Source: Candidatus Omnitrophota bacterium | Lineage (GTDB): Bacteria > Omnitrophota > Gorgyraeia > Zapsychrales > Fredricksoniimonadaceae | Direction of reading: 5' to 3' | NCBI GenBank assembly: GCA_903901225.1 | Contig: CAIUQE010000048.1 | Coordinates: forward strand, 5,844 to 69,843 | DNA length: 64,000 nucleotides | Shown here: in pieces, positions 19,975-41,490 of the stretch | Layout of the letters: each line of letters opens with the position of its first letter | Numbering within the stretch: position 1 is the first letter of the stretch | Notes under the pieces: model-generated | The model's database searches: none | Told to the model about the DNA's origin: nothing | The model's input: the letters and a program-made list of their open reading frames with translations, nothing else | Position numbers and translations under genes: made by a program

Positions 19975-20067
19975 CGTAGGGGAGGCCCTTGTGTCCTCCC
20001 GTTAGTGAATGCGGTTATTTATAATACTCGTTAGGTTTATTGGGCCGACACAAGGTCGGCCCCTACG
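19975..20067 (+). promoter_or_regulatory. structured element: two GC-rich hairpins with mutually complementary cores, bracketed by an 8-nt outer inverted repeat
   Basis: Hairpin 1 is gggagg/cctccc (19980-20000). Hairpin 2 is gggccgac/gtcggccc (20042-20062). ccttgtgtc in hairpin 1 is the exact reverse complement of gacacaagg in hairpin 2. Outer arms are cgtagggg and cccctacg. No U-tract. Confidence 0.4.
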
Positions 20068-20212
20068 TTCTACGATATCCTCTCTGACTGTTAAGCATTA
20101 TATTTTCCCCCTACCCTTGACGCAGCCCTCTTTTATAGTATATATTTATTCTGTCGTCTTTCATTCGTTGACATTTTGGACTATATTTAAAAACCTGAAA
20201 ACAGGAGTTTTT

Positions 20213-23200
20213 ATGGTACGTTCTATTGAAGAATTATCTTGTAAGGCCTTGGTAAGAAAGTCGTTAAGCCTGTTTGTAATGGCCGCTTTCATCTTAACAA
20301 GCCTTGTGCCGCCAACCTATGCCCAGGCCGTATTCAACCTGCCCCAACCGGGTGAGATGATCGGTTTGTCCGGGGTTTATACGCCGGTCGTGCTCAAAGG
20401 CGTCTCCATTCATCCCGAAGACCCCCTTTTATTCGATTTTATCGTTGATAACGGCAATTCTGATCTCAAAGGTCAGGCTTTGACCGATGAGACCACCAAG
20501 CTTGTGAAATATTTCCTGACCGGCCTCGCTGTGCCGGAAAAGGAGCTGTGGGTCAACCTTTCGCCGGTTGAGAACAACCGTATCATGGCCGATGATCTCA
20601 GTCATACGGACGCGGGTCGCGACATGCTGGCGCAGGACTATATCCTCAAGCAGATAACGTCCACTTTGATGTATCCGGAAAAAGACCTTGGCCGCAAGTT
20701 CTGGGATGAGATCTACAGCCGCGTGAACGCGAAATTCGGCACGACCGATATCCCGGTGGACACCTTCAACAAGGTGTGGATCACGCCTGACGTGGCTGAA
20801 GTGTACCAGCACGATGGGAATGCTTTTGTGACCAAGGCGCATTTGAAGGTTATGCTCGAGGCTGATTACAATGCGCTTAACGGTGCCGCGGCCCCCATGG
20901 CTGACGCGGGGAATTCCCAGACCATCGACCTGGCGCGGGATGTGGTGCGTGAGGTGATACTGCCCGTGTTGGAGAAGGAAGTCAACGAGGGCAAGAATTT
21001 CGCGGCCCTGCGGCAGATATTCAATTCCCTGATCCTGGCCGGATGGTACAAGCATGCGTTGAAAGACAGCCTGTTGAACCAGGTTTACGCGGGTACCAAC
21101 AAGGTGGCAGGCATCGATATTGCTGAAAAGAACGCGCGGGAACAGGTTTATGCCCAGTACCTGCAGGCCTACCAGAAGGGTGTTTACAACTATATTAAGG
21201 AAGAGTTCGACAGCACGACAAAGGAGTCCCTGCCGCGTAAGTATTTTTCGGGTGGAGCCGTTCTTGATCGGGCGATGAATCCTGATATAAAAAATAAAAT
21301 TGAACTTGGGTTTGATTTTTTTAGAAAATTAGGGAAAGCACTAACCGTGGTCCCTTTTCAACTTGTTCTTAAGCAGGCACAGAACGCTGTTGAACGTACG
21401 AAAAATAATATTGCCGGAAATAAGACTTCCAAATATTTCGATCTTCCTGAGTTAAGCTCTGACGAGAACAAAGATCTTATCTCGGCTATGAATAGCCCTT
21501 TAGGAATGTCAAGATTTCTGAATTTTGATGGTGTTACATCTGCGTGGGTTATGCCGACAGTGTTGGGTATTTTAGGAATTGTGGCTGAGACAGCGGTTGT
21601 CACATTAGGACAAATACCAATGGATTATAAGTTAGTTGTTAAGAGTGTTCTGCCTTTATACAGTGGTTCGGCTTTGTATACTGCATTATATGCGTATTAT
21701 CGTAGTGCCGCACTTAATGTTGTTCAGGACGATGAAAGAAGTCGTTTGGAAAAACTTCGTGCGGTAATCTTCCTTCGCAAAATTAAAGCTAGGGAGGCTC
21801 TGTGGGATGTTTCCAATAGGGCGAAGTCTGTCGTCACTAAAGTTGCCGGATGGCTTGCCATGGATGATCGAACGCTGCGAGAAATGATCCAGACCGGGGT
21901 ATCCTCTTTTGGAGTACTAAATTATTCACGTATGACCAATCAAGAGAGGGACGCTTTGGCAGGCCAATTGGCCGCAAACAACAATTTTGAAGCCTTGGCG
22001 TTTCTTGCGATTGATCCTCCGACAAGAACCCAAGCGTTGGCATTTTTTCATGGTTGGAGCAATAGTAAAGAAGATGTTCTTGCTATAGGGAAAAATTCTA
22101 TTTTTTCGATAGCTGAGTTCTCGGGTGGGCAAAAAGAACAATTGTTCACAACATTCAGGGCTGTCGTCAACGCTGATTACGCACAGGGAGATACATTGCA
22201 AAAAATGTATTCGAAGAATCTTGACCATGTCCGCAGCGTTCAGATGCTTATCGACAATTTTAAGAAGAAAGACTGGGTACGGATTGAGTTAAATGCTTTG
22301 CGTGATGCGATACGGGATCAGATTGGTTTTGAAGGTTCTTCGGGTAATCTTTCCGGAAATCCTGAACTAACAGCAATGATATTGGAGTTGCAAAAATTAG
22401 TTGATGATAAGGAATTTGAATTATCAACAGGCGTGCAGGAGGATGGCGCGCAGGAGAGCAGGAAACCAGCTAGTCTGGAAGAGGTCAGGTTAGATAAGAT
22501 CTTCTCGAAATACTCTTTAAGTGCCGCTGCTTTTTGGGATGCATATTTCTATTATGTTGAAAAGGTCATTTATCAGGAGACAAAGAACCAGTCATTTGAT
22601 CGCGTTACAAAGTTTAAATCCGTGGGTCTGCGATTGTTAACTCCGATCATTGAAAAAGTAGCCGGTATAGACTCCGGCGTAAGTATTAAAAAGCCGGGAG
22701 AAATACAAAGCTTCTTGGATGAAAAAATCAAGGAATTCAATAAAGACCGGTCACAAACGACGGATTTCGCGGCATCGCCGATCACCCTTTTATTCACGGC
22801 ATTGAGTGCTGCCGAACAACGTGAGGCTGCATTTATTATCGATAACGTAAAACACGGGCTTTTTGGTGATGCGATGGCAGCGGTGGTTTCAAGTGATTCG
22901 AGATTTTCGCCTGCAATTAAACAATTGGCTCTTTGGTTATTAATTCAGCGTTCCTGGAAAGATCCTTATTCTGACCTGGCAACTGACCTTATTAAACAAG
23001 AGATCCGTTATACAATGCCAGAGTTGCGTGCGGTTAACAAAGATGATTTTTCGCCAAAGGATTGGAATGTGATGTTAACCAATAAGTGGATCGATGAGCT
23101 TGGCGTGATCCAGGATGAATTTAAGAAAATCACTGACTATTCAAAGGTGCATTTGGATGGTGTGGAGGACGTAGATGTGCAAAACATTTGTCAGACATTG

Positions 23201-24022
23201 AACGATGAAATTGTCGCGCCAATGTACGATACAGATCTTGTCGTTGCGCATAAAGAGTTGCATTTTAAAAAAGAAGACAGAAAGAAATGGGAAGATGTGG
23301 TCTTTCTTAACGAAACTTCATTGTTCAAACGATATATTGAATTAAGCGGCTCTCAGGAAGAATTTATGGCATTTGTTGATCGTTTTAATGTTAAAAATTT
23401 TAGCAAGAAGCGGTTGGCGCGTTTATTAAATGAGATCAACGCGCAGGTTAATTCCAATCAATATGATGAGGAAAAAAAGATTTTTCTTACAGGATGGAGA
23501 GGGCTGATCGAGCAATTTATTGAGAGTAAGCCCGTGAATGAAGTTTCTGCCCAAGTTAAAATAACAGAACGAGATGATTTTGTGCCTCCATACAGGAGGA
23601 GGATCGATGAGCTCATGCGTGAATCCTTTCCTTCGGGTCAAGATGTTAAGACAGATTCTGGCGAACCTCTTTATAGAAGGCAAATCAATAAACTTATGCA
23701 GAAGAAGAATCTCCCAGGCAGTGATAGTGCCGGGACAGTCGGGACTTCCCAAAAGGATATACAAGGCGGTATCGACCTCGGCCAGGGGGATTATCTCAAG
23801 GTCATTGGCACGGACGCGTCCGGTATGCCGAAGTTCGACCCGGCTCAGCTTATCCAGTTACAGAAGGACCTGCGCGGGATCGTTCCTGTGCCGGTTGGAG
23901 TTCCTCAGCCTGTGAATTTAAAGCCGCTCCTGGGGCTTGACCCCAACAGCGGCAACGAGAACCTCCAGACCGGCCAGCTTGACCCGGTGAAGGTTGAGGC
24001 TGAAGAGGGGGTTCCTTCCTGA
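20213..24022 (+). CDS. giant secreted protein of unknown function (1269 aa), compositionally mosaic
   Basis: Start at ATG 20213 with an aggag RBS. Signal peptide ends AQA. Central nt 21240-23700 is markedly AT-rich relative to both gene ends and to the window. No recognisable catalytic motif. Confidence 0.6.
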   Translation: MVRSIEELSCKALVRKSLSLFVMAAFILTSLVPPTYAQAVFNLPQPGEMIGLSGVYTPVVLKGVSIHPEDPLLFDFIVDNGNSDLKGQALTDETTKLVKYFLTGLAVPEKELWVNLSPVENNRIMADDLSHTDAGRDMLAQDYILKQITSTLMYPEKDLGRKFWDEIYSRVNAKFGTTDIPVDTFNKVWITPDVAEVYQHDGNAFVTKAHLKVMLEADYNALNGAAAPMADAGNSQTIDLARDVVREVILPVLEKEVNEGKNFAALRQIFNSLILAGWYKHALKDSLLNQVYAGTNKVAGIDIAEKNAREQVYAQYLQAYQKGVYNYIKEEFDSTTKESLPRKYFSGGAVLDRAMNPDIKNKIELGFDFFRKLGKALTVVPFQLVLKQAQNAVERTKNNIAGNKTSKYFDLPELSSDENKDLISAMNSPLGMSRFLNFDGVTSAWVMPTVLGILGIVAETAVVTLGQIPMDYKLVVKSVLPLYSGSALYTALYAYYRSAALNVVQDDERSRLEKLRAVIFLRKIKAREALWDVSNRAKSVVTKVAGWLAMDDRTLREMIQTGVSSFGVLNYSRMTNQERDALAGQLAANNNFEALAFLAIDPPTRTQALAFFHGWSNSKEDVLAIGKNSIFSIAEFSGGQKEQLFTTFRAVVNADYAQGDTLQKMYSKNLDHVRSVQMLIDNFKKKDWVRIELNALRDAIRDQIGFEGSSGNLSGNPELTAMILELQKLVDDKEFELSTGVQEDGAQESRKPASLEEVRLDKIFSKYSLSAAAFWDAYFYYVEKVIYQETKNQSFDRVTKFKSVGLRLLTPIIEKVAGIDSGVSIKKPGEIQSFLDEKIKEFNKDRSQTTDFAASPITLLFTALSAAEQREAAFIIDNVKHGLFGDAMAAVVSSDSRFSPAIKQLALWLLIQRSWKDPYSDLATDLIKQEIRYTMPELRAVNKDDFSPKDWNVMLTNKWIDELGVIQDEFKKITDYSKVHLDGVEDVDVQNICQTLNDEIVAPMYDTDLVVAHKELHFKKEDRKKWEDVVFLNETSLFKRYIELSGSQEEFMAFVDRFNVKNFSKKRLARLLNEINAQVNSNQYDEEKKIFLTGWRGLIEQFIESKPVNEVSAQVKITERDDFVPPYRRRIDELMRESFPSGQDVKTDSGEPLYRRQINKLMQKKNLPGSDSAGTVGTSQKDIQGGIDLGQGDYLKVIGTDASGMPKFDPAQLIQLQKDLRGIVPVPVGVPQPVNLKPLLGLDPNSGNENLQTGQLDPVKVEAEEGVPS

Positions 24023-28061: not shown

Positions 28062-28964
28062 TCAATACCTGTTCACGGAAAGGACATGAAGCACGACCGT
28101 AAAAATAAAAATGAACGTCAACGGCAGATGAAGCACGTGCCATAAATAAAAAACACGTTCATAGAAATTGAATTCCGCGACGGTAACCGCTTGCCGTAAA
28201 AAGCCATGGCTTTTGCGTTCCATCTGGGTAAGGATCAGTTGCCGGCGGCGGAGCGACCAGTGGCGCTTGAGGGCATGTTCCTGGAGGTAGGCGTCGATCG
28301 CGCGGCGTATCTCGTGCCGGGTCACGCGCGCCTCGTGGCTGACTTCCAGCGCCCTCCTGAAACTGACCGACAGCACCTTCGTCGGCGTGATGACTTTTGC
28401 CAGAAAAGAATCCAGTTCCTGCTTGATAAGGGGAATGTAAGTAAAATGATGATATGTTATTTCCTTTGATTGCGCGAAAGATTTTTGAAGGTTGACCAGT
28501 GTCGTCCTCTCCCCGTTCAAGCTTTGGCAGATCTTGATGTAAATATGTTTGCCCACCACCCCGCTGGCGGACACGATCAGGAGCGAGAACAAAGCGATGT
28601 TGCTGTTGAAGGCGCCGAGATGGAAATTGCAATGGTAAAGGATGAGCAACGGCCCGAGTAATCCCAGCGTCATGTGCAACTGGAACCACTGTTTCATTGT
28701 GCCGATAACAGTCAGCGTTTTGACGCGTTTGCGTAATGGGTAGACAAATAACAGGAGCATCATGCCGGTACCGACAAACCCGTAGATGAGGCCCTGGCCA
28801 TGTGTCGGTGTGATGAGCTCATGGCGGCTTAACCGCCACCCCGCGACCACCGCGACGACGAGGAATAAATTAAAAAGCGAAGGGCTTAATGCGTCATAGC
28901 GCTTAACGCCCCTGGCCCAGGCGGGCGCAAATCTCAGTGTCAAATTTTTAATGATATCCGGCAT
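28062..28964 (-). CDS. polytopic membrane protein of unknown function (first gene downstream of the cytochrome cluster)
   Basis: 4-5 predicted TM helices followed by a basic cytoplasmic tail. Same strand as the cytochrome genes, 9-nt gap from the upstream gene. Confidence 0.5.
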   Translation of the reverse strand: MPDIIKNLTLRFAPAWARGVKRYDALSPSLFNLFLVVAVVAGWRLSRHELITPTHGQGLIYGFVGTGMMLLLFVYPLRKRVKTLTVIGTMKQWFQLHMTLGLLGPLLILYHCNFHLGAFNSNIALFSLLIVSASGVVGKHIYIKICQSLNGERTTLVNLQKSFAQSKEITYHHFTYIPLIKQELDSFLAKVITPTKVLSVSFRRALEVSHEARVTRHEIRRAIDAYLQEHALKRHWSLRRRQLILTQMERKSHGFLRQAVTVAEFNFYERVFYLWHVLHLPLTFIFIFTVVLHVLSVNRY

Positions 28965-28973
28965 ATGGTCCTA

Positions 28974-31280
28974 CTAATAAATGATGTTCATCAGGAATTT
29001 CAAGAGGGTCATGTGCCTGGCAAGGAGGCGCTTCATTTCGGACGGGGCGGCATCCATGATCCTGACAGGCAAAAACGGGTTCGCTCCTTGCTTTAGAAGA
29101 GTCTTGACAATAACGCTGTTGTTGCGTTTGACGGCCAAAGCGAGCGCCGAGTTCCCCGCTTTGTTCATCGGTGTGACGTCCGCCCGATGGCCCAGTAACA
29201 GAGCGACCACATCCGCGGCGTCCGCGTCGACGGCCAGCATGAGGGGCGTATTGCCATCGTTGCTGGCCACATTGACAAGGGCTCCTGAGCTGACCAGCAA
29301 CAAAGCACACTCAATGCTGCCGGCGTGCGCGGCGAAAGACAAGGCCGTATGGCCTTCGTTGTTGCGGCGCGTTGTATCAGCTTTGCGCCCAAGAAGGAAT
29401 TTAACGGCCTCCTGGTGACCGTTCTCGGCGGCGATCATGAGCGCGGTGCGGCCCGACGCGTCGCTGGTGTTGATATCCATTTTTCGCGCGAGGAAGATAT
29501 CGATGAGATCAACGTCTCCCATCTTGACAGCGGCCAGGAACGGCCCCAATGCGCCGCCAGATGTCATGTCCCAGCTGGCCCCGGCATTTAAAAGCAACTT
29601 GGCAACGGGGCCGTGGCCGTTGGCAATGGCCTCAGCCAGGGCCTTGTCAAAAACGCGCGGGAATTTTTCGTGGCTGCCATATTCCTGGATAAGGCGGTTG
29701 ACCACGGCTTCATGGCCATTACCCGCCGCAAGGATCAAGGGCGAAGTTTTTTCCGGGTTGAGCCCGTCATTCACGCGTGCTCCGGCTTTGAGCAGGCGCG
29801 CGACAATATCCAGGTTGCCACGCCATGCGGCCCGGCTTAGCGGTGTCTGACCTTCTGTATCAGTCGCGTTGACATCAGCCCCCTGGAGGATCAAAAGGTC
29901 GACGATATCCTTTTCCCCTCGCCATACGGCCAGGATGAGGGGCGTTCTTGTCGCCGTGGTTTTTAAAAGAGAAGGATCGACCCCGGTAGACGGCAACATA
30001 ACTTTACCTGTGGCCAGGAGGGCCTCACTGACATCTTTATACCCTTTCAGTAAAGCGATGGATAAGGCATTCTCGTGGTTGCTGGTGGTCCGGGTGACAT
30101 CCGCTCCCTGGTTGATGAGGAACTTGACCATGGGAAGGTCGTCCTGCCAGGCTGCCAGCATCAAAGGTGTCAGGCCTTTAGTATTGGGGAAATCGATCTT
30201 GCTGCCGGCTTTTAGCAGCATTTCGGCTGACGTGAAGTCTTTCTTTTGCACCGCAAGCAGCAGCGCGTTGTCACCGTCATTACTGAGGATGTCGGGGTCA
30301 GCTCCTTTTCGGATGACGTCGGGAAGCCATGCCGTCAGGCCGCGCGCCACGGTTTCCATGAGAGCCGTGCGTCCGTTGCGGTCTTTGTAATTGATGTTCA
30401 GGCCAGCCGCGATGATCCGGTCAAAATCATCTTTGCGCGCGTTCCTGATCGCTGATAAGAAAAGTTCTTCGCGCGGCAGGTCAGGGTCGTTCTGGCCCCA
30501 CCGGGCCTGCTGTTGTATTGTTTTTAGCCTTTCGATCGCCGGACTGAACCCCTTACCCGCGGCTCTTGTGTACCAGGACAAGGCGTCCTGATAGCTTGAA
30601 GCGGTCCCTTTGCCAGTTTCGATGAGCTGTCCCAGCCGGTATTCAGATTCAAGGTCCCCTTGATCAGCAAGGGTTTTATAGAGGTTCACGGCTAGCGCGA
30701 AGTCTTTGTTGTTGACGGCTTGCATGGCCCTGTCATGCAGTTGTTGCTGCGATGAAAGTATGGCCGATGGCTTGAGGGCATTTATGGTTTCAGAGGAAGA
30801 TGTTTCTTTGATCCGAAGAGATGTCGTGCCGTTAATCTTGATATCCGCCAGGCGGTCGACAGCGGGGGTGTAATTCTGGCCGGCTGATTTTTTATACCAG
30901 GATAAGGCTTCGGGAATACCCTGAAGCACTCCCCGGCCGGATTCGAGCATGGAGGCGACATTGAATTGGGCTTTGGCGTTGCCTTTTTCAGCAGCCTTTT
31001 TATACCATGAAAAAGCCGTCGGGTAGTCTTTGGGAACTCCCTTCCCTGTCTCGTAAAGAGCGCCGAGTTGGTATAGCGCGTCGGGATCGCCCTGATCGGC
31101 CAGGCCGGAATATAGCGTAAGCGCAAGTGTGTAATCTCTCGCGCGGATCGCACGCCTGGCTTCATCCATTGGCGATGGCCTGGAGGGAATATCCTGGGCG
31201 CGGGCATCGAGCCCAACGCCCAGGATAAGTAACGGGATAACGGCGGATACACAACGCCGCCATGACCGAGCATGCGACAT
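28974..31280 (-). CDS. secreted Sel1-like-repeat plus ankyrin-repeat protein
   Basis: Signal peptide. Sel1-like repeats (YQLGALYETGKGVPKDY...; EYRLGQLIETGKG). About 13 ankyrin repeats (GRTALM..A...G..DVV..LL..GAD). Start chosen at the ATG at 31280 (MSHARS), which has a ggaga RBS. Confidence 0.7.
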   Translation of the reverse strand: MSHARSWRRCVSAVIPLLILGVGLDARAQDIPSRPSPMDEARRAIRARDYTLALTLYSGLADQGDPDALYQLGALYETGKGVPKDYPTAFSWYKKAAEKGNAKAQFNVASMLESGRGVLQGIPEALSWYKKSAGQNYTPAVDRLADIKINGTTSLRIKETSSSETINALKPSAILSSQQQLHDRAMQAVNNKDFALAVNLYKTLADQGDLESEYRLGQLIETGKGTASSYQDALSWYTRAAGKGFSPAIERLKTIQQQARWGQNDPDLPREELFLSAIRNARKDDFDRIIAAGLNINYKDRNGRTALMETVARGLTAWLPDVIRKGADPDILSNDGDNALLLAVQKKDFTSAEMLLKAGSKIDFPNTKGLTPLMLAAWQDDLPMVKFLINQGADVTRTTSNHENALSIALLKGYKDVSEALLATGKVMLPSTGVDPSLLKTTATRTPLILAVWRGEKDIVDLLILQGADVNATDTEGQTPLSRAAWRGNLDIVARLLKAGARVNDGLNPEKTSPLILAAGNGHEAVVNRLIQEYGSHEKFPRVFDKALAEAIANGHGPVAKLLLNAGASWDMTSGGALGPFLAAVKMGDVDLIDIFLARKMDINTSDASGRTALMIAAENGHQEAVKFLLGRKADTTRRNNEGHTALSFAAHAGSIECALLLVSSGALVNVASNDGNTPLMLAVDADAADVVALLLGHRADVTPMNKAGNSALALAVKRNNSVIVKTLLKQGANPFLPVRIMDAAPSEMKRLLARHMTLLKFLMNIIY

Positions 31281-31314
31281 TCCTGGATCTCCCATAAAAA
31301 GCACAATGCTATTA

Positions 31315-33540
31315 CTAAAAGATCAGCCTGTACCCGGTAGTAATGAACATTTCACGCGATTTGGACTTAATGCCCGACGCGATCTCGCTGACCCACTCTG
31401 TTCCGCCGTCAATTTCCAGTGTCGCGAACTTTGTCAGGCTGTACTCCAGGCGCATTTCGGGACGATAAGCCCAGCGTTCGTCGGCTGACGCTTTCGTGTC
31501 TTTAAAGTCCGTATGAAAACGCGGATTGATCCTGGTTTTGGCCGTCAGCGGGTAACGCGCGTTGAGGTTGAACGCGTAATCATAATATGTTTGCGCGTCG
31601 GTGAACACCAGGCCCGGGATCAAAGAGTCCTGCTCTTTGATAAGGTTGCTGATGTTCAGTTCGGTTGAATAGGTCCAGTCCGGCCCTGTTGAATTGGAGC
31701 CTTCAACCCCGCCGGACGTGATCATACCTTCGAGCGCGGAGACCGAGACTTCACCCGTCCACTGGAGATTTTCCCTGATGTCCTGGCTCACACCGGCCGT
31801 GGCCGACTTGCTGTTCGTCGAGCGGTCAATGGCCAGTTGGCGCAGCTCTTTTCTGGTATAAGTGGACTTAAGGTCGGATATATTCGCGACACCCATCCCC
31901 TGGATCGCGTTGTTCGTTGTGATCAAAGGCGACTTGCGGTAGTCTGCCGTCAAGCTGAGCGTGGTCTTTGTCGGCAAGGTGTAACGCATGTTGGTGGACG
32001 CGATATTGAGCCTCTGGAAATATGTATCATAATCGACAAGTGTGAAGAGCGATTTTTTCCGGTCAAAATACCTGACCTCGCCGCCCACCGCCTGGCGGTC
32101 CGTCAAGCCTGAATTCTGCTGGGCAATGGCAAAGGTATTGAATGTCCAGCGCGCTTTGGGGATCCCCCAGTCGATGTTGATCCCTTCGAACAGTTTCTGC
32201 GTGATCACCCGTGATATTTTCACGCTATCAACCGGATAACCGCTGACAACGTTGAGCTTTATCCCTGGGGTTATCTGCTTGGACACATGGACACCGTCAA
32301 AACGACCCAATACGCCGCCCGTTGAGAGTGTCTGGCGTCCGGCGCGCGCGTAGAAACCGAGTTTTTTGGACTTGATATCAACGGCCATGGCGCTCAAGCG
32401 ATTCTCATTCTTGCTGCCGCTGAGGTAATTCTGTGTTTTTCCACCGCTGAAACGCGCCTTGATCTCGAGGTCCCGGCTCTTCCACCGCCCGTTGATATCA
32501 ACGTCGCTGGCAAGGTTGTTCAACGTGTCGTTTTGTTTGCTTCCTTTGATCTTTAACATGTCCCTGTAATAGTACTGGGACGCGCTGCCGAAATACTGCG
32601 ATGACCACACGGACTCGGCGATCTTTCTGCTGGCGCCGGCAGGTTCCTTGAGAGGGGCCTGGGCGGCCTGGGTGGAGGTAACAACACCCGCCAGGCGTTG
32701 ACGGACACGGTCGGCGTCGGGGCCTTCGGGATATTCTTTAAGGTACTGGCTGTATTCAGCGGCCGCGTGGGCCAGTTGCTTGTTGCGTTCCCGCGCGACA
32801 CCCAACAATTCCCGCGCCTGTTTTTTCAATTCTCCTTGAGCTGTCAGAAGGACTTTCAAATATAGCTGGACCGCGGCGTCATAATCAGGCTTCACCAGCG
32901 CATCTTTGGCTTCCCGCATGAGCGAAGATTCAGGCTGGTCTAGAGGGGCTTCAGGCAATGCCAATTCCCCTGCTTTCCTGGCTTCGAGCCCGGCCCCCTG
33001 CGGCGGCTGGGCTGTAGTTACCCTGATGGTCACGGTTTTCATATCCGCGCTGTCATGCACATCGATCGTAACATCTTCGTTAAAATCGAGGATGATCTGC
33101 GGGTTTTCCGTGTCATTGCCATCGAAAGTGATATTGTTCAACGGGATGCCTGAGGAGTGATCCCAGGAAGGGATCAGGTTCGAATGGATGATGTCGAGAT
33201 CCTCCTGGTCCAGTTTTGAATGGTCGACGGTCTTTAACTGGATGTAGAACTTGCTCGCTTTCCCGGAGGGTGACGCATTCTTGAAGCGGTAGGAATAGAG
33301 CGAGTTCATCTCGATCTTGTAACCTTCGGAAATTGTCTGGATCTTGATATCTTCCATGGCGCCGGCATAAGCAGGTACGACGGAAAGTAACCAAATGCTT
33401 AGGAAGACTGTTAATGATCTGACGCCGTTGGCCAGTGTTTCTTGAAGAAAAGTTTTATTCACGAACGTTGAGCCGGATATATTTTTTATAGTGAGCACGA
33501 TAGTCTTTCTTACTTGTTGAATGTTCTTGTTGAGTGACAC
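31315..33540 (-). CDS. outer-membrane protein: N-terminal TPR-like helical region plus C-terminal beta-barrel
   Basis: Signal-peptide-like segment. Helical repeat region. Alternating amphipathic C-terminal half ending in the aromatic residue ...YRLIF. The listed start overlaps the upstream cytochrome by 31 nt; an alternative GTG at 33462 would avoid the overlap. Confidence 0.5.
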   Translation of the reverse strand: MSLNKNIQQVRKTIVLTIKNISGSTFVNKTFLQETLANGVRSLTVFLSIWLLSVVPAYAGAMEDIKIQTISEGYKIEMNSLYSYRFKNASPSGKASKFYIQLKTVDHSKLDQEDLDIIHSNLIPSWDHSSGIPLNNITFDGNDTENPQIILDFNEDVTIDVHDSADMKTVTIRVTTAQPPQGAGLEARKAGELALPEAPLDQPESSLMREAKDALVKPDYDAAVQLYLKVLLTAQGELKKQARELLGVARERNKQLAHAAAEYSQYLKEYPEGPDADRVRQRLAGVVTSTQAAQAPLKEPAGASRKIAESVWSSQYFGSASQYYYRDMLKIKGSKQNDTLNNLASDVDINGRWKSRDLEIKARFSGGKTQNYLSGSKNENRLSAMAVDIKSKKLGFYARAGRQTLSTGGVLGRFDGVHVSKQITPGIKLNVVSGYPVDSVKISRVITQKLFEGINIDWGIPKARWTFNTFAIAQQNSGLTDRQAVGGEVRYFDRKKSLFTLVDYDTYFQRLNIASTNMRYTLPTKTTLSLTADYRKSPLITTNNAIQGMGVANISDLKSTYTRKELRQLAIDRSTNSKSATAGVSQDIRENLQWTGEVSVSALEGMITSGGVEGSNSTGPDWTYSTELNISNLIKEQDSLIPGLVFTDAQTYYDYAFNLNARYPLTAKTRINPRFHTDFKDTKASADERWAYRPEMRLEYSLTKFATLEIDGGTEWVSEIASGIKSKSREMFITTGYRLIF

Positions 33541-36500
33541 GCGCCACAGTCTTGTGTGGTACGCGGATGATCATGCGACTTTCCAGTGATCTGGATGCCG
33601 TCATGCGATTGTCCATCATGGCAGCTGGAACAAGTTCCGGATGCATCTGAATGGTTGAATTTGCTGCTTGAAACATTCCAACTTGAGGTCAAATGGCAAT
33701 TGCCGCAATTATTGGTGGTATTTAAATGGGAAGCTCCTTTTCCTGTAGCTTTTGATCCGTTATGGCACGAGGAACATGTTCCCGTGACCGCTGTATGATC
33801 AACGCGTGCTACCGGTGTCCAGGCCACGGTCGAGTGGCAACTGTTGCAGGTGCTCGCGGAACTGATGTGGTTAGCCGATTTGCCTGTAGCGGATGATCCG
33901 TTGTGGCAGGTGGAACATGCCGCAGAAACGCCGCCATGGTCAAAAACCGCGGGGGTCCAGGCATTGGTGTTGTGGCAGGCGTCACAGCTCGTCGATGTCG
34001 GGATGTGCGTGGCGTTCTTACCCGGAGCCGTCGAGCCGTTATGGCAACTGGAGCATGACCCTGTCACCGAGGTGTGGTCTACCCTTGAGACAGAGCTCCA
34101 GGAAACGGTCGTATGGCAGTTATTGCAAATATTGTTCGTCGTGATATGGGTCGGAGGCTTACCGCTCGCGCTTGTGCCATTATGGCAATTCGCGCATGAA
34201 CCGCTCACCGCGTTGTGGTCCATCCGCGTCACGGGGGTCCAGGCCGAGGTCGAATGACAGCTGTCGCAGGTCGTTGCCGAAGCAATATGGTTTGGCGATT
34301 TCCCGGTGGCCGTGGTGCCATTATGGCAGCTTGAACAAGAGCCGCTGACCCGCGAGTGATCCAGGCGTGACACGGCCCAGCTCGATGTTGTGTGGCAGGA
34401 GTCACAGGACGCTGATGTTGCGATATGGTTCCCCGGCTTCCCTGTCGCCGTTGAGCCATTGTGACAGTTCGCGCAGGTGCCGGTCGCCGCGGCATGGTCC
34501 ATGCGGGTGACGGGCGACCAGGCTGAGGTTGAATGGCAACTGTCGCAGGTTGTTGCGGAGGCGATATGATTGGCCGGCTTCCCCGAGGCGGTCGTGCCGT
34601 TATGGCAGCTGGAACATGTGCCGCTGACCTTGGAGTGGTCCAGACGTGACACGGTCCAGCTCGACGTTGTATGGCAGGCGTCACAGGCCGCGGATGTGGT
34701 GATGTGATTTGCAGGTTTTCCTGTCGCCGCCGACCCGTTGTGGCAGTTGGCACATGTGCCGGTCACCGCGGCATGGTCCATGCGGGTGACGGGCGTCCAG
34801 GCTGTGGTCGAATGACAGCTGTCGCAGGTCGTCGCGGAGGCGATGTGGTTCGCCGATTTTCCCGGTGCCGTTGTGCCGTTATGGCAGCTGGAACACGTCC
34901 CGCTGAGCTTGGAATGGTCCAGCCGGGACACGGTCCACGATGATGTCGTATGGCAGGCGTCACAGGCGGCGCTTGTGGCAATGTGCGTGCCCGGCTTGCC
35001 TGTGGCGGCTGATCCATTATGGCACGCGGCGCACGCTCCTGTCACCGCCGCGTGATCAAGCCTCATCACGGGTGACCACGCCGTTGTCGAATGGCAACTG
35101 TTACATGTTGCCGCGGAACTTATGTGCGTGGGAGATTTTCCGGTCGCGGTCGTTCCGTTGTGGCAGCTTGAACAACTGCCGCTTACCTTGCTGTGGTCCA
35201 GCGATGTCACGGCCCAGTTGTTGGTGCCATGGCAGGCGTCACAGCTGGCGCTCGTGGCGATATGTGTGGGCGATCTTCCCGTAGCGGCAGACCCGTTGTG
35301 GCAGCTCGCGCAGGTTCCTGTCGCCGCCGTATGGTCCATCCTTGCCAGCGGGGTCCAGGCTGATGTGGTGTGACAACTGTTGCAGGTTGTTGCGGCAGCG
35401 ATGTGCGTTGGCGATTTTCCTGTCGCTGTAGTACCGTTATGACAACTCGCGCAGGTCCCGCTGGCCTTGGTGTGGTCAAATGAAGATACCGCCCAACTGT
35501 TGATGCTGTGGCATGAATCACAGCTGGCGCTTGTGGCAATGTGGGTGGCGGTCTTGCCCGGCGCCGTTGATCCGTTGTGGCATGATGCGCATGTTCCGCT
35601 AACGGACGCATGGTCCATTTTTGTCAAGGGGGTCCAGGCCGAGGTTGAATGGCAACTGTTACAGGTCGTCGCGGAACTGATATGCGTCGCGGACTTGCCC
35701 GTCGCGGACGTCCCGTTATGGCAGCTCGCGCAGGTCCCGGTGACCTTGTTATGGTCAAGTGAGGCCGCTGCCCAAGTGGTTGTGCTGTGACAGGAATCAC
35801 ACGTGGCACTGGTGGCGACATGTTTGGCAGGCTTGCCTGTGGAGATGGTCCCGTTATGGCAGCTTGCGCAGGTCCCGGTCACGGCCGCGTGGTCCATTTT
35901 TGTCAACGGCGTCCAGGCTGATGTGGCGTGGCAACTGTTACAGGTCGTCGCGGTGCTGATATGTGTGGCTGACTTACCTGCCGCGGACGTCCCGTTATGG
36001 CAACTGGCGCACGCGCCGCCGCCGGTCTTGTTGTGGTCAAATGATGATACAGCCCAGCTGTTGACGCTGTGGCAGGCATCGCAGCCGGTTGATGTGGCAA
36101 TATGCCGGGCCGGCTTCCCTGTCGCGGCGCGCCCGTTATGGCAATTCGCGCACGTGCCGATACCGGCCGCATGATCCATCTTGGTCAGGGGTGTCCAGCC
36201 GGTTGTCGTATGGCAACTGTTGCAGGTTGCCGTCGAACTTATGTGTGACGGAGATTTTCCCTGCGCGGTCGTCCCGTTGTGGCAACTGGCGCATGTCCCG
36301 GATGCTCTTTTGTGGTCGAAAGAAGCCACGGCCCAGCTGTTGGTGGTGTGACACGTGTCGCAGGCATCGTTGGTCAGGATGTGACGGGACGGTTTTCCTG
36401 TCGCGGTCGTCGTATTGTGGCAACTGGCACATGTCCCTGATGCCCTGGAGTGATCGAACTTTTTGACGGCCCAGCTGTTGGTGGTATGGCACACTTCACA

Positions 36501-37058
36501 GCCATCGGTCGTGACAATATGGCTTATCGGCCGGCCCGTGGCATTCTGGCCGTTATGGCAGCGGGCACAAACGCCGATGACCTTACTGTGATCAAATTTA
36601 ACCTTGGTCCAGCTGGAAGTGACATGGCAGGTGTCACAGTTGGCAACTGTCGGGACGTGCCCGATGTCCTTCCCGCCCGCTGTTGTCCCGTTGTGGCAGT
36701 TGAGGCATGAGCCGATCACCGCGTTATGGTCAACCGAAACATTGCTGCTGAAATTTGTTGATGAATGGCAATCCTGGCAGCGTTCGCTGCTCCTGATGTG
36801 GTTGACAGGCTTTGACATGGCCTGGATGCCCGCGCCTGAAGTGTGGCAGCCGTCACAGGTGTTGGGCGTGTTCTTGAAGCGGCCTTGCGCGTGGCACGTC
36901 TCACATGTCAGCCCGGCATGGGCCCCGGTGATGGCAAAGCCCGTCGTGTTGTGGTCGAACGTTCCGGTATCAGCCTGTGCTCCTGCAGGAAGCAGCGCCA
37001 GGACGAAAGCCAGCGCCCATGTCATGAAAGCCAAAAGGTTTATTCGTTTATCGCTCAT
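33510..37058 (-). CDS. secreted giant multiheme c-type cytochrome (49 CxxCH motifs in 1182 aa)
   Basis: Signal peptide ends AQA. I counted 49 CxxCH motifs. Most of the protein is built from tandem ~47-aa diheme repeats. ATGA overlap with the upstream 27-heme gene. Confidence 0.85.
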   Translation of the reverse strand: MSDKRINLLAFMTWALAFVLALLPAGAQADTGTFDHNTTGFAITGAHAGLTCETCHAQGRFKNTPNTCDGCHTSGAGIQAMSKPVNHIRSSERCQDCHSSTNFSSNVSVDHNAVIGSCLNCHNGTTAGGKDIGHVPTVANCDTCHVTSSWTKVKFDHSKVIGVCARCHNGQNATGRPISHIVTTDGCEVCHTTNSWAVKKFDHSRASGTCASCHNTTTATGKPSRHILTNDACDTCHTTNSWAVASFDHKRASGTCASCHNGTTAQGKSPSHISSTATCNSCHTTTGWTPLTKMDHAAGIGTCANCHNGRAATGKPARHIATSTGCDACHSVNSWAVSSFDHNKTGGGACASCHNGTSAAGKSATHISTATTCNSCHATSAWTPLTKMDHAAVTGTCASCHNGTISTGKPAKHVATSATCDSCHSTTTWAAASLDHNKVTGTCASCHNGTSATGKSATHISSATTCNSCHSTSAWTPLTKMDHASVSGTCASCHNGSTAPGKTATHIATSASCDSCHSINSWAVSSFDHTKASGTCASCHNGTTATGKSPTHIAAATTCNSCHTTSAWTPLARMDHTAATGTCASCHNGSAATGRSPTHIATSASCDACHGTNNWAVTSLDHSKVSGSCSSCHNGTTATGKSPTHISSAATCNSCHSTTAWSPVMRLDHAAVTGACAACHNGSAATGKPGTHIATSAACDACHTTSSWTVSRLDHSKLSGTCSSCHNGTTAPGKSANHIASATTCDSCHSTTAWTPVTRMDHAAVTGTCANCHNGSAATGKPANHITTSAACDACHTTSSWTVSRLDHSKVSGTCSSCHNGTTASGKPANHIASATTCDSCHSTSAWSPVTRMDHAAATGTCANCHNGSTATGKPGNHIATSASCDSCHTTSSWAVSRLDHSRVSGSCSSCHNGTTATGKSPNHIASATTCDSCHSTSAWTPVTRMDHNAVSGSCANCHNGTSASGKPPTHITTNNICNNCHTTVSWSSVSRVDHTSVTGSCSSCHNGSTAPGKNATHIPTSTSCDACHNTNAWTPAVFDHGGVSAACSTCHNGSSATGKSANHISSASTCNSCHSTVAWTPVARVDHTAVTGTCSSCHNGSKATGKGASHLNTTNNCGNCHLTSSWNVSSSKFNHSDASGTCSSCHDGQSHDGIQITGKSHDHPRTTQDCGACHSTRTFNK
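33940..36450 (-). repeat. in-frame tandem array of ~141-bp coding repeats (about 17-18 units, several nearly identical)
   Basis: Repeating protein unit CASCHNGTxATGKxxxHIATSAxCDxCHxTxxWTPVTRMDHAAVTGT. Adjacent double units (~280 bp) are almost identical at the DNA level. Confidence 0.8.
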
Positions 37059-39025
37059 TTACTATCCCTGATGAAATATTTCTTGAACGTATCAACGGCA
37101 TGACACAGGCCGCAATTCTCGCCGAATTGTCCTTTATGGACGTCATCGTTCTCATGGCACGCGAAACAATCCGATGAAGTATGCCGGCCTTTTGCGAGGG
37201 GTTTGTTATGGCACGCTGCGCATTTGATCCCCGCGTGCGGCCCCTCAAGTTTGTATTTGGTCTGTCGGTCATGGTCGAATTGCCACAACTTCCAGCCGTT
37301 GGGATTGTGGCATTGGCCGCAATCCGTCCCCAAAGCGCTTTTATGCGTATCTTGCCTGGCGTGACATGAACCACAATCAGGCTGGGTGTCTTGATAAGCG
37401 GCCGAATGATGACATTCTGTGCATGCCAGGACAGCATGCTGGCCAATGAGCGGAAAATGAGTCAGGTCATGGTCGAATTTTGACACATCCTGCCATTTCC
37501 CGGCATTATGGCAACGCTGACAATCGCGCGCGGACGCGCTTTTGTGGACATCATCTTTTTGATGACAACTGGCGCAATCTGTCGGCAGCCTCGTCCCGTG
37601 TTCCAGCGGGGCGTTATGGCAAGCGCGGCATTTTAACGTTTCGTGTGCTTCAGTCAACAAAAATTTTGTCATAATATTGTGCTTAAAATCCCACTGTTTC
37701 CAGCTGTCAGCCGTATGGCATTGCGCGCAATCTTCACCGAGGGCACCTTTATGCGTGTCGTCTTTTTCATGGCAGGAAGAACACGCGCGTTTAGCGTCTT
37801 TGAACGCCGCGCTAAGATGGCATGTGTTACAAGCCAGAACAATATGCGGGCCTTTTAACTGGAAACGAGTCCTGTCGTGGTCAAATTTAACGTTAACTTT
37901 CCAGCCCGCATCGTTGTGGCAGGACTGGCAGTCCTTCCCTTCCTGCCCTTTGTGCACATCCTGCGCCTGATGGCAGGACAGGCAAGCCTTGTCGATTTTC
38001 ATATCAGCCGAAGCTATCCTGTGACAGGCCTCACAATCGGCAGCCCTATGTTTCCCTGACAACAAGAAATGCGTGTCGCGGTCATGGTCAAAGGTGACCT
38101 TTTTCCATCCGGATGTGGTGTGGCACTGTTCGCATTTGGTCCCGTTCTTGGCTTTATGGGTGTCGTCCAGTTTATGGCACGCCAGACAATTTGTCGGAGT
38201 GGTTGTCGTAAAAACATTCGCGGCATGGCAGGCCGCGCATGCCGTCTGGAGGTGCTTTCCCGTCAAGGCGAACTTGGTCCCTTTGTCATGGTCAAAAGAG
38301 ATGTTCTTCCATCCACGGGTTGAATGGCACTGTTCACAACGGGCATCACGGGGGCTGTTATGGACATCATTGATCAGATGGCACGCCACGCAAGCCACGG
38401 CTGTTTTGGTGTATTTTTCATTAACATGGCAGATATTGCAGGCGACGTTCACATGCTTCCCGTTCAGTGGGAAATTTGTTTTGGCATGAACAAAGAGCGC
38501 GTTTTTCCAGCCGGTGTCATTGTGGCATCGGGCGCAATCTTTACCAAGTTCTTCATGATGATGATCATTCTTGGCGTGACAGCTGTAACAATCTTCGGGA
38601 GCAGCCCGGTAAGGGCGTCCGGGTTGATGGCATGAGCGGCATGTCACGCTCGAAAGAGCGTGGGCCCCATGGAGCGCGAAGTCTGTCCGGTCATGCTTGA
38701 AGGTTTCTTTATCCAGACGGACAATGTCATACGCGCGGCCTTTATGTTCCGTGTGGCAGGCCTTGCAAGCCTTATCTTCCTCGCCCGCGCGCCGGCCGTG
38801 GAGGCCTTGATGGAGCGTGATGTCAGAGGCCACATCCTTGTGGCAGTCCAGGCATATCAGATCCTGTTTGTTCTTGTCGAAAGCAGAATGGCATTTTGGA
38901 CACTGCCCTTCGTAGGCCGCGTGGGCCCTGGTCAATGGCCCGGGCATGACGAACAGTTCGATGAGATTAACGCGATAAAGTTGGAACAGCGCTATCAGTA
39001 TGAGCACGACCAGAGCGCTGATCAC
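37055..39025 (-). CDS. membrane-anchored multiheme cytochrome, c7/c3-polymer-like (27 CxxCH motifs)
   Basis: N-terminal TM anchor. 27 CxxCH motifs, roughly three per ~70 aa, resembling triheme c7-like modules. GTG start per ORF track. Confidence 0.8.
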   Translation of the reverse strand: MISALVVLILIALFQLYRVNLIELFVMPGPLTRAHAAYEGQCPKCHSAFDKNKQDLICLDCHKDVASDITLHQGLHGRRAGEEDKACKACHTEHKGRAYDIVRLDKETFKHDRTDFALHGAHALSSVTCRSCHQPGRPYRAAPEDCYSCHAKNDHHHEELGKDCARCHNDTGWKNALFVHAKTNFPLNGKHVNVACNICHVNEKYTKTAVACVACHLINDVHNSPRDARCEQCHSTRGWKNISFDHDKGTKFALTGKHLQTACAACHAANVFTTTTPTNCLACHKLDDTHKAKNGTKCEQCHTTSGWKKVTFDHDRDTHFLLSGKHRAADCEACHRIASADMKIDKACLSCHQAQDVHKGQEGKDCQSCHNDAGWKVNVKFDHDRTRFQLKGPHIVLACNTCHLSAAFKDAKRACSSCHEKDDTHKGALGEDCAQCHTADSWKQWDFKHNIMTKFLLTEAHETLKCRACHNAPLEHGTRLPTDCASCHQKDDVHKSASARDCQRCHNAGKWQDVSKFDHDLTHFPLIGQHAVLACTECHHSAAYQDTQPDCGSCHARQDTHKSALGTDCGQCHNPNGWKLWQFDHDRQTKYKLEGPHAGIKCAACHNKPLAKGRHTSSDCFACHENDDVHKGQFGENCGLCHAVDTFKKYFIRDSK

Positions 39026-39612: not shown

Positions 39613-40308
39613 CTATTTGCCGTACACTGTCTGTAATTGCGCGACTTTGGGGAACTCCGCGTAGAATTCACCCTGGGGACCCACGAAGCCGGCCCCTGAC
39701 CTCTTGATCGTTACCGCCGTATACCCGCCACTTTTGGTGTTGGGGATATTGATCGTGAACACCTCATCGGCCGCGGGAGTTGCCGCTGATGCCGTTACAG
39801 ATGCCGCTGGGGCTGTTGCAACCGGCTGGGGCTGTGTTATCGATGCCTGAACGATGACAGGGGCCGGCGCGGGTTGTGTGACAATGACCGGTGCCTGTGT
39901 CATTGTCGCAGGTTGCTGAACGACCTGGTATCCATAACGCGTGTAAATGTAATAAGTGCCGTTATCGACGTAGTACGTGATACCGTTGATCACAATGGGC
40001 CGGTATTCCGGAGGGATCGCGGCCACCACGGCGCCGATCGGCGGGGTTACAAGGACAAAGTCACCGCCTATTTTGGTGTAATAAAGCCCATCATAATAGT
40101 AATATCTCGCTTCCCTTGTCCGCACAACAAAGGCGTCGTCGGGAACAAAGGTCAAATGAAGGCCAAACGAAGGGCGCTCGTGATAGCGATAATAATGATG
40201 GTCTTCGTGACGACCATTGTCCCTGGCGAATGACAACGAAGGCGGTGCCAATAATGACAATCCCATAATTAGCGCCGACACCTTCGATATTTCTTTTATA
40301 CTGAACAT
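39613..40308 (-). CDS. secreted Tyr-rich protein, paralog A
   Basis: Signal peptide. Y-rich core (ARYYYYDGLYYTKIGGDFVLV...INGITYYVDNGTYYIY). Pro/Ala/Thr/Val-rich linker. Conserved C-terminus GPQGEFYAEFPKVAQLQTVYGK shared with 40885..41490. Confidence 0.55.
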   Translation of the reverse strand: MFSIKEISKVSALIMGLSLLAPPSLSFARDNGRHEDHHYYRYHERPSFGLHLTFVPDDAFVVRTREARYYYYDGLYYTKIGGDFVLVTPPIGAVVAAIPPEYRPIVINGITYYVDNGTYYIYTRYGYQVVQQPATMTQAPVIVTQPAPAPVIVQASITQPQPVATAPAASVTASAATPAADEVFTINIPNTKSGGYTAVTIKRSGAGFVGPQGEFYAEFPKVAQLQTVYGK

Positions 40309-40346
40309 GGCGAACCTCTTGTTTTGAGCTGGCAGGTCCAGTCCTG

Positions 40347-40808
40347 TTACCTGGTCTGCATGGTTTCAATGACCCGCTGACTTACACCTTCCCTGCGCAG
40401 ATAACTTATGTCATCAGCCGTGAGGGCATACGTTGAATTAGTGGTCCTGATTCTGGCAATGATCTCATCCCCCGACAAGCCCTGCTGTGTCCAATCAACG
40501 ATCTGCTGCATCGTTATTTGGGAGATCGGAGTGGCGCGTGACGCGACCGGGACCTGTCTGGGCGTAGCGTTCTTGTTCTCGATCTGTGACCCCGCAATGC
40601 CACCCGCGGCCGCGCCCAAAGCACCGCCGATCAAAGCGCCGCCGATGGCATGGTCGCCTTTTTGCTGATGCCCCACTACGCCGCCGACAACAGCGCCGAG
40701 TATGCCGCCGATCCCGGCGCCCTCAGCGACCTTGGTCTGGTTCTCGGCGCAGCCGGACAATGCCAGCGCGTAGACCGCAATGATTAGTAGATAGACTTGA
40801 TTCTTCAT
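40347..40808 (-). CDS. glycine-zipper lipoprotein
   Basis: Lipobox LALSGCA. Glycine zipper GIGGILGAVVGGVVG...GALIGGALGAAAGGIAG. Small globular C-terminal domain. Confidence 0.55.
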   Translation of the reverse strand: MKNQVYLLIIAVYALALSGCAENQTKVAEGAGIGGILGAVVGGVVGHQQKGDHAIGGALIGGALGAAAGGIAGSQIENKNATPRQVPVASRATPISQITMQQIVDWTQQGLSGDEIIARIRTTNSTYALTADDISYLRREGVSQRVIETMQTR

Positions 40809-40884
40809 TCCCTGCCTCCATGTTTGATGATTTAATTATCAAAGGCCGCCATGTGACCTGATGGGCCGCATTTTAGCACTTTTT

Positions 40885-41490
40885 TCATTTTGTATACATA
40901 ACACGTAATTGCTCGACCTTGGGAAATTCATTATAAAATTCTCCCTGGGGTCCGATAAACCCGCTGCCTGACCGCGTGAGATTTACAGCCGTGAACCCGC
41001 CCTGGGAATTTGGCACATTGACGGTAATGGCTCCCTGGGCGCTGGCAGGAGCAGTTGCCGGGGTGATCACTGTAGGCGGCGCGACAACAACAGCGGGCTG
41101 ATAAATGACCGGTTGAGGAACGACCTGATAACCGCCCGCGACGGGAACATAATAAGTCCCGTTATACTCAAAATATGCGGTGCCGTTGACAATGTACTGC
41201 CGGGATCCGGCGGGAATAGCGTAAACGATCGCGTTAACAGGGGCCGTTTCAACGATATAGGTGTAAGAAACGGGTGTGTAATAACGGGGCGGATAATACC
41301 TGTGGGCATAATAGTCCCTCCAGGGGTCATAATCCCTGAAAGAGCCCCTTCCACGATGGTCCGCGACGCCGATATCTATCCCCCATGAAACACCGGCATG
41401 GGCTGTTGTTGGCGTGAAGGACAAGATTAGGAAGGCCAGGATGCTCACACACAAGGACACGGGAAAATTCAATTTGTTCGAGCTATACAT
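40885..41490 (-). CDS. secreted Tyr-rich protein, paralog B
   Basis: Start at ATG 41490 (MYSSNK) with a ggagg RBS. Signal peptide. Same architecture and C-terminal GPQGEFYNEFPKVEQLRVMYTK motif as paralog A. Confidence 0.55.
   Translation of the reverse strand: MYSSNKLNFPVSLCVSILAFLILSFTPTTAHAGVSWGIDIGVADHRGRGSFRDYDPWRDYYAHRYYPPRYYTPVSYTYIVETAPVNAIVYAIPAGSRQYIVNGTAYFEYNGTYYVPVAGGYQVVPQPVIYQPAVVVAPPTVITPATAPASAQGAITVNVPNSQGGFTAVNLTRSGSGFIGPQGEFYNEFPKVEQLRVMYTK

Follow-up and report, generated by a model that had tools for sequence, protein, structure and literature searches.

We studied a stretch of 64,000 nucleotides from a Candidatus Omnitrophota bacterium (contig CAIUQE010000048.1, positions 5,844 to 69,843; in the following, the window) with a focus on a gene at 28974..31280 on the minus strand, whose product of 768 aa combines Sel1 and ankyrin repeats (Sel1/Ank). 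The gene is the fourth of five co-directional minus-strand genes with intergenic gaps of -4 to 34 nt. They encode, in this order, a cytochrome with 27 hemes, a cytochrome with 49 hemes, a porin, Sel1/Ank, and an inner-membrane protein (IMP). That is, the porin lies upstream and the IMP downstream of the Sel1/Ank gene, which agrees with the original prediction (made from the sequence alone) of a gene placed between an outer-membrane protein and a membrane protein in a redox operon.

The operon and its Sel1/ankyrin protein

The full open reading frame (ORF) of Sel1/Ank covers 28974..31304 (-). Its ATG at 31280 has a GGGAG about 10 nt upstream, and translation from this codon opens MSHARSWRRCVSAVIPLLILGVGLDARAQD. 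The same 768-aa product is found in public gene calls, and the exact protein is present on nine metagenome contigs. Its Pfam matches include Ank_2 (PF12796; E=2.4e-68, 227 bits vs. a cut-off of 27.3), Ank (PF00023; E=9e-63, 205 bits vs. 21.1), and Sel1 (PF08238; E=3.2e-25, 88.1 bits vs. 30.7, in 3 stretches). With scores this far over the curated cut-offs, the matches cannot be chance. We further computed an AlphaFold2 (AF2) model with 16 orthologues as input (mean predicted local distance difference test, pLDDT, of 83). For both the ankyrin and the Sel1 family, we find matches over the gathering score, and the model resolves 14 helix pairs in the ankyrin part and two helical modules in the Sel1 part. 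The fusion of the two repeat classes, which had been read from the sequence before, is thus borne out by Pfam and AF2.

Within the protein, Sel1 module 1 spans aa 37-150 (30831..31172, -; Pfam Sel1 and AF2 helices) and Sel1 module 2 spans aa 175-261 (30498..30758, -; AF2 helices). The latter shares 44% identity over 78 aa with module 1 and is an insertion in the window protein only, i.e., it is missing from all orthologues in the protein alignment. It is a lineage-specific internal duplication of module 1. Next come 14 ankyrin repeats at aa 267-738 (29067..30482, -; Pfam Ank families and AF2 helix pairs) and a long C-terminal helix at aa 747-767 (28980..29042, -; AF2), whose EMKxLLxxY tail is conserved in the orthologue alignment. 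When the model is compared to the PDB with Foldseek, the top matches are ankyrin-R/B and DARPins; this search returned generic ankyrin stacks and DARPins alone and provided no functional lead. None of the curated NCBIfam families attains its cut-off with Sel1/Ank, the IMP, or the porin.

The first 28 aa of Sel1/Ank (31197..31280, -) resemble a signal peptide with predicted cleavage at ARA|QD. They comprise a basic n-region (HARSWRR) and the h-region VSAVIPLLILGVGL with its 14-residue hydrophobic core, and A26-R27-A28|Q29 agrees, as judged by eye, with the AXA rule. In the AF2 model, a helix at aa 2-21 is followed by a disordered linker. A hydrophobicity scan identifies an N-terminal hydrophobic segment in 47/50 distinct orthologues, while the 3 exceptions look truncated. 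The signal peptide that had been predicted in front of the repeats is therefore seen, within the reach of such heuristics, as a signal-like N-terminus both here and throughout the family. We infer a periplasmic location of the protein, where it would reside among the loops of the IMP, the periplasmic cytochrome, and the TPR/beta-sandwich domain of the porin. Tat export via the SWRRC stretch in the n-region, which is a twin-arginine candidate, was considered as well and rejected; the orthologues are without this motif.

The gene at the start of the operon (37055..39025, -) encodes a periplasmic-type multiheme cytochrome of 656 aa with a hydrophobic anchor at aa 1-27, as assessed via Pfam and motif count. 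Its 27 CXXCH motifs correspond to 24 aa per heme. The second gene (33510..37058, -) encodes an extracellular-type multiheme cytochrome of 1182 aa with 49 CXXCH motifs and Pfam matches to Cytochrome_C7 and others. It is rich in T (15.5%), S (14.6%), and A (12.7%), and its gene matches itself at an offset of 279 nt (93 aa), where about 2 kb align at about 75% identity; this indicates a tandem array of multi-heme modules. For the porin (31315..33540, -; likely true start at 33498), the AF2 model (pLDDT 81) is composed of a signal helix, a beta-sandwich, TPR-like helices, and a 22-strand barrel. Respective Foldseek neighbours are ushers and porins; sequence profiles add weak TPR_16 and BamD-like matches. 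Finally, the IMP (28062..28964, -) is a putative di-heme b protein of 300 aa. It shows the motif WX3HX13H at aa 93 (WFQLH..H) and aa 275 (WHVLH..H) as well as SGXXG at aa 134 (SGVVG), and the motif residues including the His are invariant in an alignment of 6 IMP homologues. A hydropathy scan of the IMP reveals 4 clear hydrophobic segments plus the third transmembrane (TM) helix, such that a count of five helices is approximate.

This gene content corresponds to the porin-cytochrome gene cluster PCC3, a candidate electron conduit through the cell envelope, which is described as four genes (PMC5566968; PMC9900912; 10.1101/2025.02.27.639646). PCC3 is defined by a conserved IMP, which has about 300 aa and comprises five TM helices; TM4 bears SGXXG, and both TM3 and TM5 bear WX3HX13H (PMC5566968). 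This IMP has been proposed to be a di-heme b cytochrome like the ferric-reductase domains (He et al. 2017, PMC5566968). Its periplasmic cytochrome has a very high heme number (median 21) at a low aa/heme ratio, its extracellular cytochrome carries dozens of hemes on a repetitive, low-complexity sequence rich in Thr/Ser/Ala/Gly, and an adjacent beta-barrel outer-membrane protein is included (PMC5566968). All four components, i.e., the IMP, a periplasmic cytochrome whose hemes exceed 20, a repetitive extracellular cytochrome, and a barrel outer-membrane protein, are found in the window. Every PCC3 feature that can be tested on sequence is present, and by these features the window operon is a PCC3-type cluster.

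The window differs from the published description in the following respects. First, the Sel1/Ank gene is a fifth gene inside the operon. Second, its host belongs to Omnitrophota, a phylum that is unlisted in PMC5566968, PMC9900912, and 10.1101/2025.02.27.639646. HtpG encoded in the window shares 70-81% identity with proteins from Candidatus Omnitrophota metagenome-assembled genomes, which places the host in this phylum. Third, the genes of the window are arranged as cytochrome, cytochrome, porin, Sel1/Ank, and IMP. PCC3 was first described in Betaproteobacteria, with follow-ups on Gallionellaceae and Sideroxydans (PMC9900912; 10.1101/2025.02.27.639646), and the window adds Omnitrophota to its known hosts.

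A sequence search against the PDB with the porin and an IMP profile gave no meaningful matches, and therefore no PCC3 component has a solved relative. Scanning the operon for promoters and terminators resulted in counts equal to the shuffled level. In a public scaffold (L001), the IMP appears as a truncated protein of 211 aa, which we rejected as an artefact of 100-base scaffold gaps; outside of these gaps, the scaffold is 99.9-100% identical to the window. As a separate observation, the gene of the 27-heme cytochrome (37055-39025 (-); L001:2187-4073) is uncalled in public predictions, where small opposite-strand ORFs are given instead. Since it is uncalled on identical public contigs, protein databases may under-represent the periplasmic cytochrome.

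Linkage to PCC3 genes and a flavoprotein partner

We checked, as suggested along with the original prediction, whether the linkage of Sel1/Ank to cytochrome genes is conserved in other genomes. The closest database relatives with a Sel1+Ank architecture show 36-44% identity. Six orthologue contexts were inspected, and all of them adjoin an IMP homologue, multiheme cytochromes, and a porin. The locus of an Omnitrophota metagenome-assembled genome contains the same five genes in the same order as the window, while the gene order is shuffled in the remaining inspected contexts. This constant content in shuffled order argues for selection on the content rather than for synteny by inheritance.

To extend this, we scanned metagenomes for PLMLAAWRGE, a motif specific to the family. 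The scan retrieved the family specifically and provided 80 more loci. These loci, like the 80 IMP-anchored loci introduced below, are the best-scoring subset of a larger match list, and their ORF starts are longest-ORF guesses. In all metagenome loci whose upstream flank extends over 1 kb or more (63/63), an IMP, a multiheme cytochrome, or a flavoprotein is encoded. None of the three is found in 11 loci, all of which are cut within about 300 nt of the gene.

The second set is based on an IMP search that is independent of Sel1/Ank. Here, an alignment of six IMPs was compared to 185,579 species-representative genomes, which identified at least 553 relatives, and the best 80 were fetched. In 48/80 of the respective loci, a Sel1/Ank orthologue is located within about 5 kb; 44 of these are near full length and 4 are cut by a contig end or degraded. 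The porin of the window is homologous to ORFs at the porin position in 60 of the IMP-anchored loci. Carriers of Sel1/Ank are found in six phyla, namely Pseudomonadota (Alpha- and Gammaproteobacteria), Planctomycetota, Verrucomicrobiota, Thermodesulfobacteriota, Nitrospinota, and Omnitrophota. Across these, the linkage of the Sel1/Ank gene to PCC3 genes is near-obligate, and the conserved link to cytochromes that had been anticipated is confirmed by both locus sets.

Variants of the PCC3 neighbourhood were also observed. In 2/7 Nitrospira/Nitrospiraceae loci, a short Sel1-only lipoprotein takes the Sel1/Ank position (L058:1530-2219(-) and L086:1532-2176(-)); it has about 220 aa and a lipobox-like N-terminus and follows the flavoprotein gene. 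In addition, relatives of the PCC3 porin (e.g., P0296, P0302, P0352) carry varied periplasmic N-terminal modules, i.e., SPOR (peptidoglycan-binding) or AMIN plus a TPR region, which suggests that some lineages attach the barrel to the cell wall.

Most non-betaproteobacterial loci add not one but two genes to the published set, i.e., a unit of Sel1/Ank and an FeS-flavoprotein. The latter is a protein of about 436 aa that has a membrane anchor at its N-terminus and combines a 2x[4Fe-4S] ferredoxin domain with a flavoprotein domain similar to thioredoxin reductase/YpdA (examples are L008:2415-3731, L034:6988-8370(-), and L097:6595-7911). Wherever both genes are present, the flavoprotein gene is directly upstream of Sel1/Ank on the same strand (106/106), and the two overlap or abut in 75 of these loci. 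The pair is usually divergent from the genes of the IMP, the two cytochromes, and the porin. Such translational coupling suggests a stoichiometric (1:1) production of both proteins.

The partnership is not strict in either direction. The flavoprotein gene is also found in 13 PCC3 loci without Sel1/Ank. Conversely, no flavoprotein homologue was identified in the entire 64-kb window or in the locus of the Omnitrophota relative, and a few other Sel1/Ank loci are likewise without the gene. Sel1/Ank is therefore not strictly dependent on the flavoprotein. With regard to function, the flavoprotein probably feeds the IMP from the cytoplasmic side. Combined with the ferric-reductase-like di-heme IMP, this points to a split, NADPH-oxidase-like path through the inner membrane. 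The coupled flavoprotein may thus hint at an NAD(P)H-linked, NADPH-oxidase (NOX)-like path, in contrast to the quinone-linked path proposed so far.

Within the searched PCC3 literature, including the supplements of PMC5566968, there is no mention of ankyrin, Sel1, TPR, or FAD/FeS oxidoreductases. A literature search combining ankyrin, Sel1, or TPR with PCC3, multiheme cytochromes, extracellular electron transfer, or Omnitrophota also returned nothing relevant. The Sel1/Ank gene, and elsewhere the flavoprotein gene, are thus apparently undescribed additions to the four-gene description of PCC3. Both the PCC3 identity of the operon and the missing FeS-flavoprotein partner go beyond the original prediction.

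Candidate roles of the Sel1/ankyrin protein

Two observations relate Sel1/Ank to a specific partner. The first is a signature of the family in ankyrin repeat 6, where W453 and R454 (codons at 29919..29924, -) occupy repeat positions 13/14. Their weighted conservation is about 0.8 and 0.91, respectively, among 107 orthologues. Positions 13/14 are variable in the other thirteen repeats, and most other conserved residues are structural repeat positions. We take positions 13/14 to be the canonical target-contact positions of the concave ankyrin groove. Their conservation in repeat 6 alone suggests one conserved ligand.

The second observation is that Sel1/Ank is longer where the periplasmic cytochrome has more hemes. 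Median lengths are 507 aa for 18 hemes (n=8) and 670 aa for 21 hemes (n=50). For 22-23 hemes, the protein has 683-707 aa (n=3), for the 27 hemes of the window 768 aa (n=1), and for 33 hemes 1254 aa (n=1). The trend is also visible within Omnitrophota, where a Sel1/Ank of 634 aa is found with 21 hemes vs. 768 aa with 27 hemes. In contrast, when the extracellular cytochrome (9 to 56 hemes) is considered within the 21-heme class, no scaling of Sel1/Ank length is observed (Spearman rho -0.15, p=0.41). That is, the length tracks periplasmic but not extracellular hemes, which is suggestive of a structural partner of the periplasmic cytochrome. The longest protein is from a Nitrospinaceae locus (L022:6081-9845), where a doubled Sel1-Ank-Sel1-Ank protein of 1254 aa adjoins a 33-heme periplasmic cytochrome.

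Taken from sequence-level evidence, Sel1/Ank would be a dedicated periplasmic accessory of the PCC3 conduit, to which we assign a probability of about 0.9. We put even odds on the more specific claim of a stable scaffold or adaptor, which would most likely run along the periplasmic multiheme cytochrome. The assembly or scaffolding role for the cytochrome complex that had been proposed for the gene is supported in so far as genomic linkage, the export signal with the respective localisation, and the size scaling all point to it.

A possible mechanism is as follows. Sel1/Ank would be exported via Sec and cleaved at ARA|QD, such that a mature protein of about 740 aa remains in the periplasm. There, the ankyrin concave groove around W453-R454 together with the Sel1 superhelix may bind the long 27-heme periplasmic cytochrome and keep it in register between the di-heme-b IMP and the TPR/beta-sandwich domain of the porin. 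This arrangement could allow electron transfer between the inner membrane and the extracellular cytochrome with its 49 hemes. Most other lineages co-translate Sel1/Ank with the membrane-anchored 2x[4Fe-4S] flavoprotein, which is missing from the Omnitrophota version of the window.

Several points weigh against the scaffold interpretation. The signal peptide call for Sel1/Ank is heuristic, i.e., it was made by eye and with a simple hydrophobicity scan. The AF2 model has a predicted template-modelling score (pTM) of 0.44, and its inter-domain geometry is therefore uncertain. Sel1/Ank is missing from 32/80 IMP-anchored loci, mainly from Betaproteobacteria, Nitrospira, and some Woeseiaceae, and is therefore not essential to every PCC3. 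The size scaling amounts to about 3-5 phylogenetically independent contrasts. Moreover, it is reached by different means, namely by Sel1 duplication in the window, by fewer ankyrin repeats in Alphaproteobacteria, and by doubling of the whole protein in Nitrospinaceae. Finally, the function of PCC3 in extracellular electron transfer is experimentally unverified according to its own literature (PMC5566968).

Among the alternatives, a transient assembly or maturation chaperone fares best. It would hold the long, low-complexity apo- or holo-cytochromes during heme attachment and dissociate afterwards; in another form, it would assist in localising and inserting the barrel and in threading the extracellular cytochrome, similar to the role of AlgK for AlgE. 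Precedents are the TPR chaperones NrfG, CcmI, and AlgK. Obligate linkage to PCC3 is equally expected for such a helper, and so is the periplasmic location that we predict for Sel1/Ank. The size scaling speaks for the scaffold, since tracking the periplasmic heme number would be superfluous for a catalytic chaperone and since the length does not follow the largest client, i.e., the extracellular cytochrome. Still, both clients are extreme: they bear 27 and 49 hemes, which leaves about 24 aa for each heme. One orthologue locus adjoins CcmH/CycH-TPR and thioredoxin-like genes, and the porin itself has a TPR/BamD-like domain, but Sel1/Ank is without a match to TPR_CcmH_CycH (PF23914) at E<=0.01. 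Similarly, many PCC3 clusters work without Sel1/Ank, as expected for a helper, whereas its translational coupling with a redox subunit points to the two being made in a 1:1 ratio. Overall, we regard a chaperone as possible, with the odds clearly against it.

Comparison with known systems provides analogies for both the scaffold and the chaperone. Periplasmic alpha-solenoids that are encoded together with the barrel or cytochrome they serve are known from AlgK-AlgE, the TPR-porin fusions BcsC, PgaA, and PelB, as well as NrfG and CcmI/CycH. Partners of the AlgK/NrfG/CcmI type likewise act as scaffolds or chaperones of long linear clients, and the window porin has a TPR-like domain fused to its barrel. 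For Sel1/Ank, however, no membership in any of these sequence families was found, and the BamD model matches weakly and on the porin alone. To our knowledge, none of these systems combines Sel1 with a long ankyrin stack.

For the ankyrin part, exported proteins are known from Pseudomonas aeruginosa, where the heme enzyme KatB requires AnkB to be fully active, and from Bdellovibrio, where Bd3460 is a periplasmic ankyrin protein. At the level of generic repeats, both resemble Sel1/Ank as exported ankyrin proteins with a periplasmic partner instead of a eukaryotic host. They differ in being short, with about 4-6 repeats and no Sel1, and they are not known to be linked to multiheme cytochromes or porins. 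A further likeness is found in the Uet cluster for extracellular electron transfer, where the NHL-repeat proteins UetH/I and the peptidyl-prolyl isomerase UetB are encoded as presumed structural or assembly factors (PMC9900912). Like Sel1/Ank, these are non-redox repeat or folding proteins within an electron-transfer cluster; unlike Sel1/Ank, which is an alpha-solenoid, UetH/I are beta-propellers, and the cluster family is a different one.

A more far-reaching version of the scaffold interpretation considers PCC3 together with the FeS-flavoprotein as a six-component, NADPH-oxidase-like machine. In this machine, Sel1/Ank would serve as a stoichiometric periplasmic sheath or ruler that sets the length and register of an 18-33-heme wire. 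PCC3 would then not be a four-protein quinone-linked conduit; the flavoprotein at the cytoplasmic face would relay electrons between NAD(P)H and both b-hemes in the IMP. The Omnitrophota form without flavoprotein would then be a derived variant that is wired to a different inner-membrane donor or acceptor. We consider this version speculative and rather unlikely in its entirety. If true, Sel1/Ank would provide the first case in which an ankyrin-repeat protein is a structural part of an electron-transport complex in bacteria.

Sel1/Ank could also be a periplasmic regulator or gate, which either holds a sensor kinase or senses the redox state or occupancy of the conduit and controls expression or electron flow. 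The Sel1 protein ExoR holds a sensor kinase in check in such a way, and the Sel1 part of our protein shows a weak similarity to the ExoR model (NCBIfam NF045484), which however scores 30 bits vs. a cut-off of 450. Genes of histidine kinases or response regulators are located in or beside some clusters (L010, L012, L004), while kinase genes are missing from the window operon and from most loci. Neither fourteen ankyrin repeats nor a scaling with cytochrome size is expected for a regulator, which leaves this role improbable.

Least probable by far is a eukaryote-directed effector (akin to Legionella/Coxiella Ank or LpnE-like Sel1 proteins) that is part of a cytochrome operon by coincidence: although Ank and Sel1 are classic 'eukaryote-like' effector domains and partial matches to NCBIfam Dot/Icm Ank-effector models occur (AnkX, AnkY, AnkH, AnkG, and others), all of these fall short of their cut-offs by a factor of 4 to 40 and match only generic repeats (the best is AnkY with 146 bits vs. 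600), the N-terminus carries a Sec-type signal (heuristic) with no type IV secretion system context, and the near-obligate PCC3 linkage occurs in free-living environmental lineages of six phyla, which makes a host-effector role very unlikely, as had been argued for the gene from the start.

Further observations in the window and implications for PCC3

Beside the operon, the window shows some features of its own. A series of small genes (39613-42132 (-)) immediately precedes the cytochrome operon and is also present on identical public contigs. Its products are two DUF6515 proteins, one glycine-zipper protein (Rick_17kDa_Anti-type), and one protein without family. At 20009-24022 (+), an ORF of 1337 aa without Pfam match has a G+C content of 43-47% vs. 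about 54% around it, and this stretch may be horizontally acquired DNA. Furthermore, the window encodes two pyruvate kinases, i.e., a barrel-only form of 339 aa (42545-43564 (-)) and a form of 593 aa with C-terminal and phosphoenolpyruvate (PEP)-utilizer mobile domains (60130-61911 (-)).

PCC3 is among the most widespread candidate systems for extracellular electron transfer and is modelled, searched, and scored as a four-gene marker set. In most non-betaproteobacterial lineages, it is accompanied by Sel1/Ank and the coupled FeS-flavoprotein. Both genes change what has to be cloned for reconstitution, the inputs for structure prediction, and the definition of the marker set, as well as which inner-membrane electron source or sink is to be considered. 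A missing conserved subunit could explain difficulties in PCC3 modelling or reconstitution. Genetics is feasible, since cultured carriers exist, e.g., a Bradyrhizobium isolate (L069). Sel1/Ank also offers a testable example of 'eukaryote-like' repeats that would serve in a periplasmic housekeeping structure and not in host manipulation.

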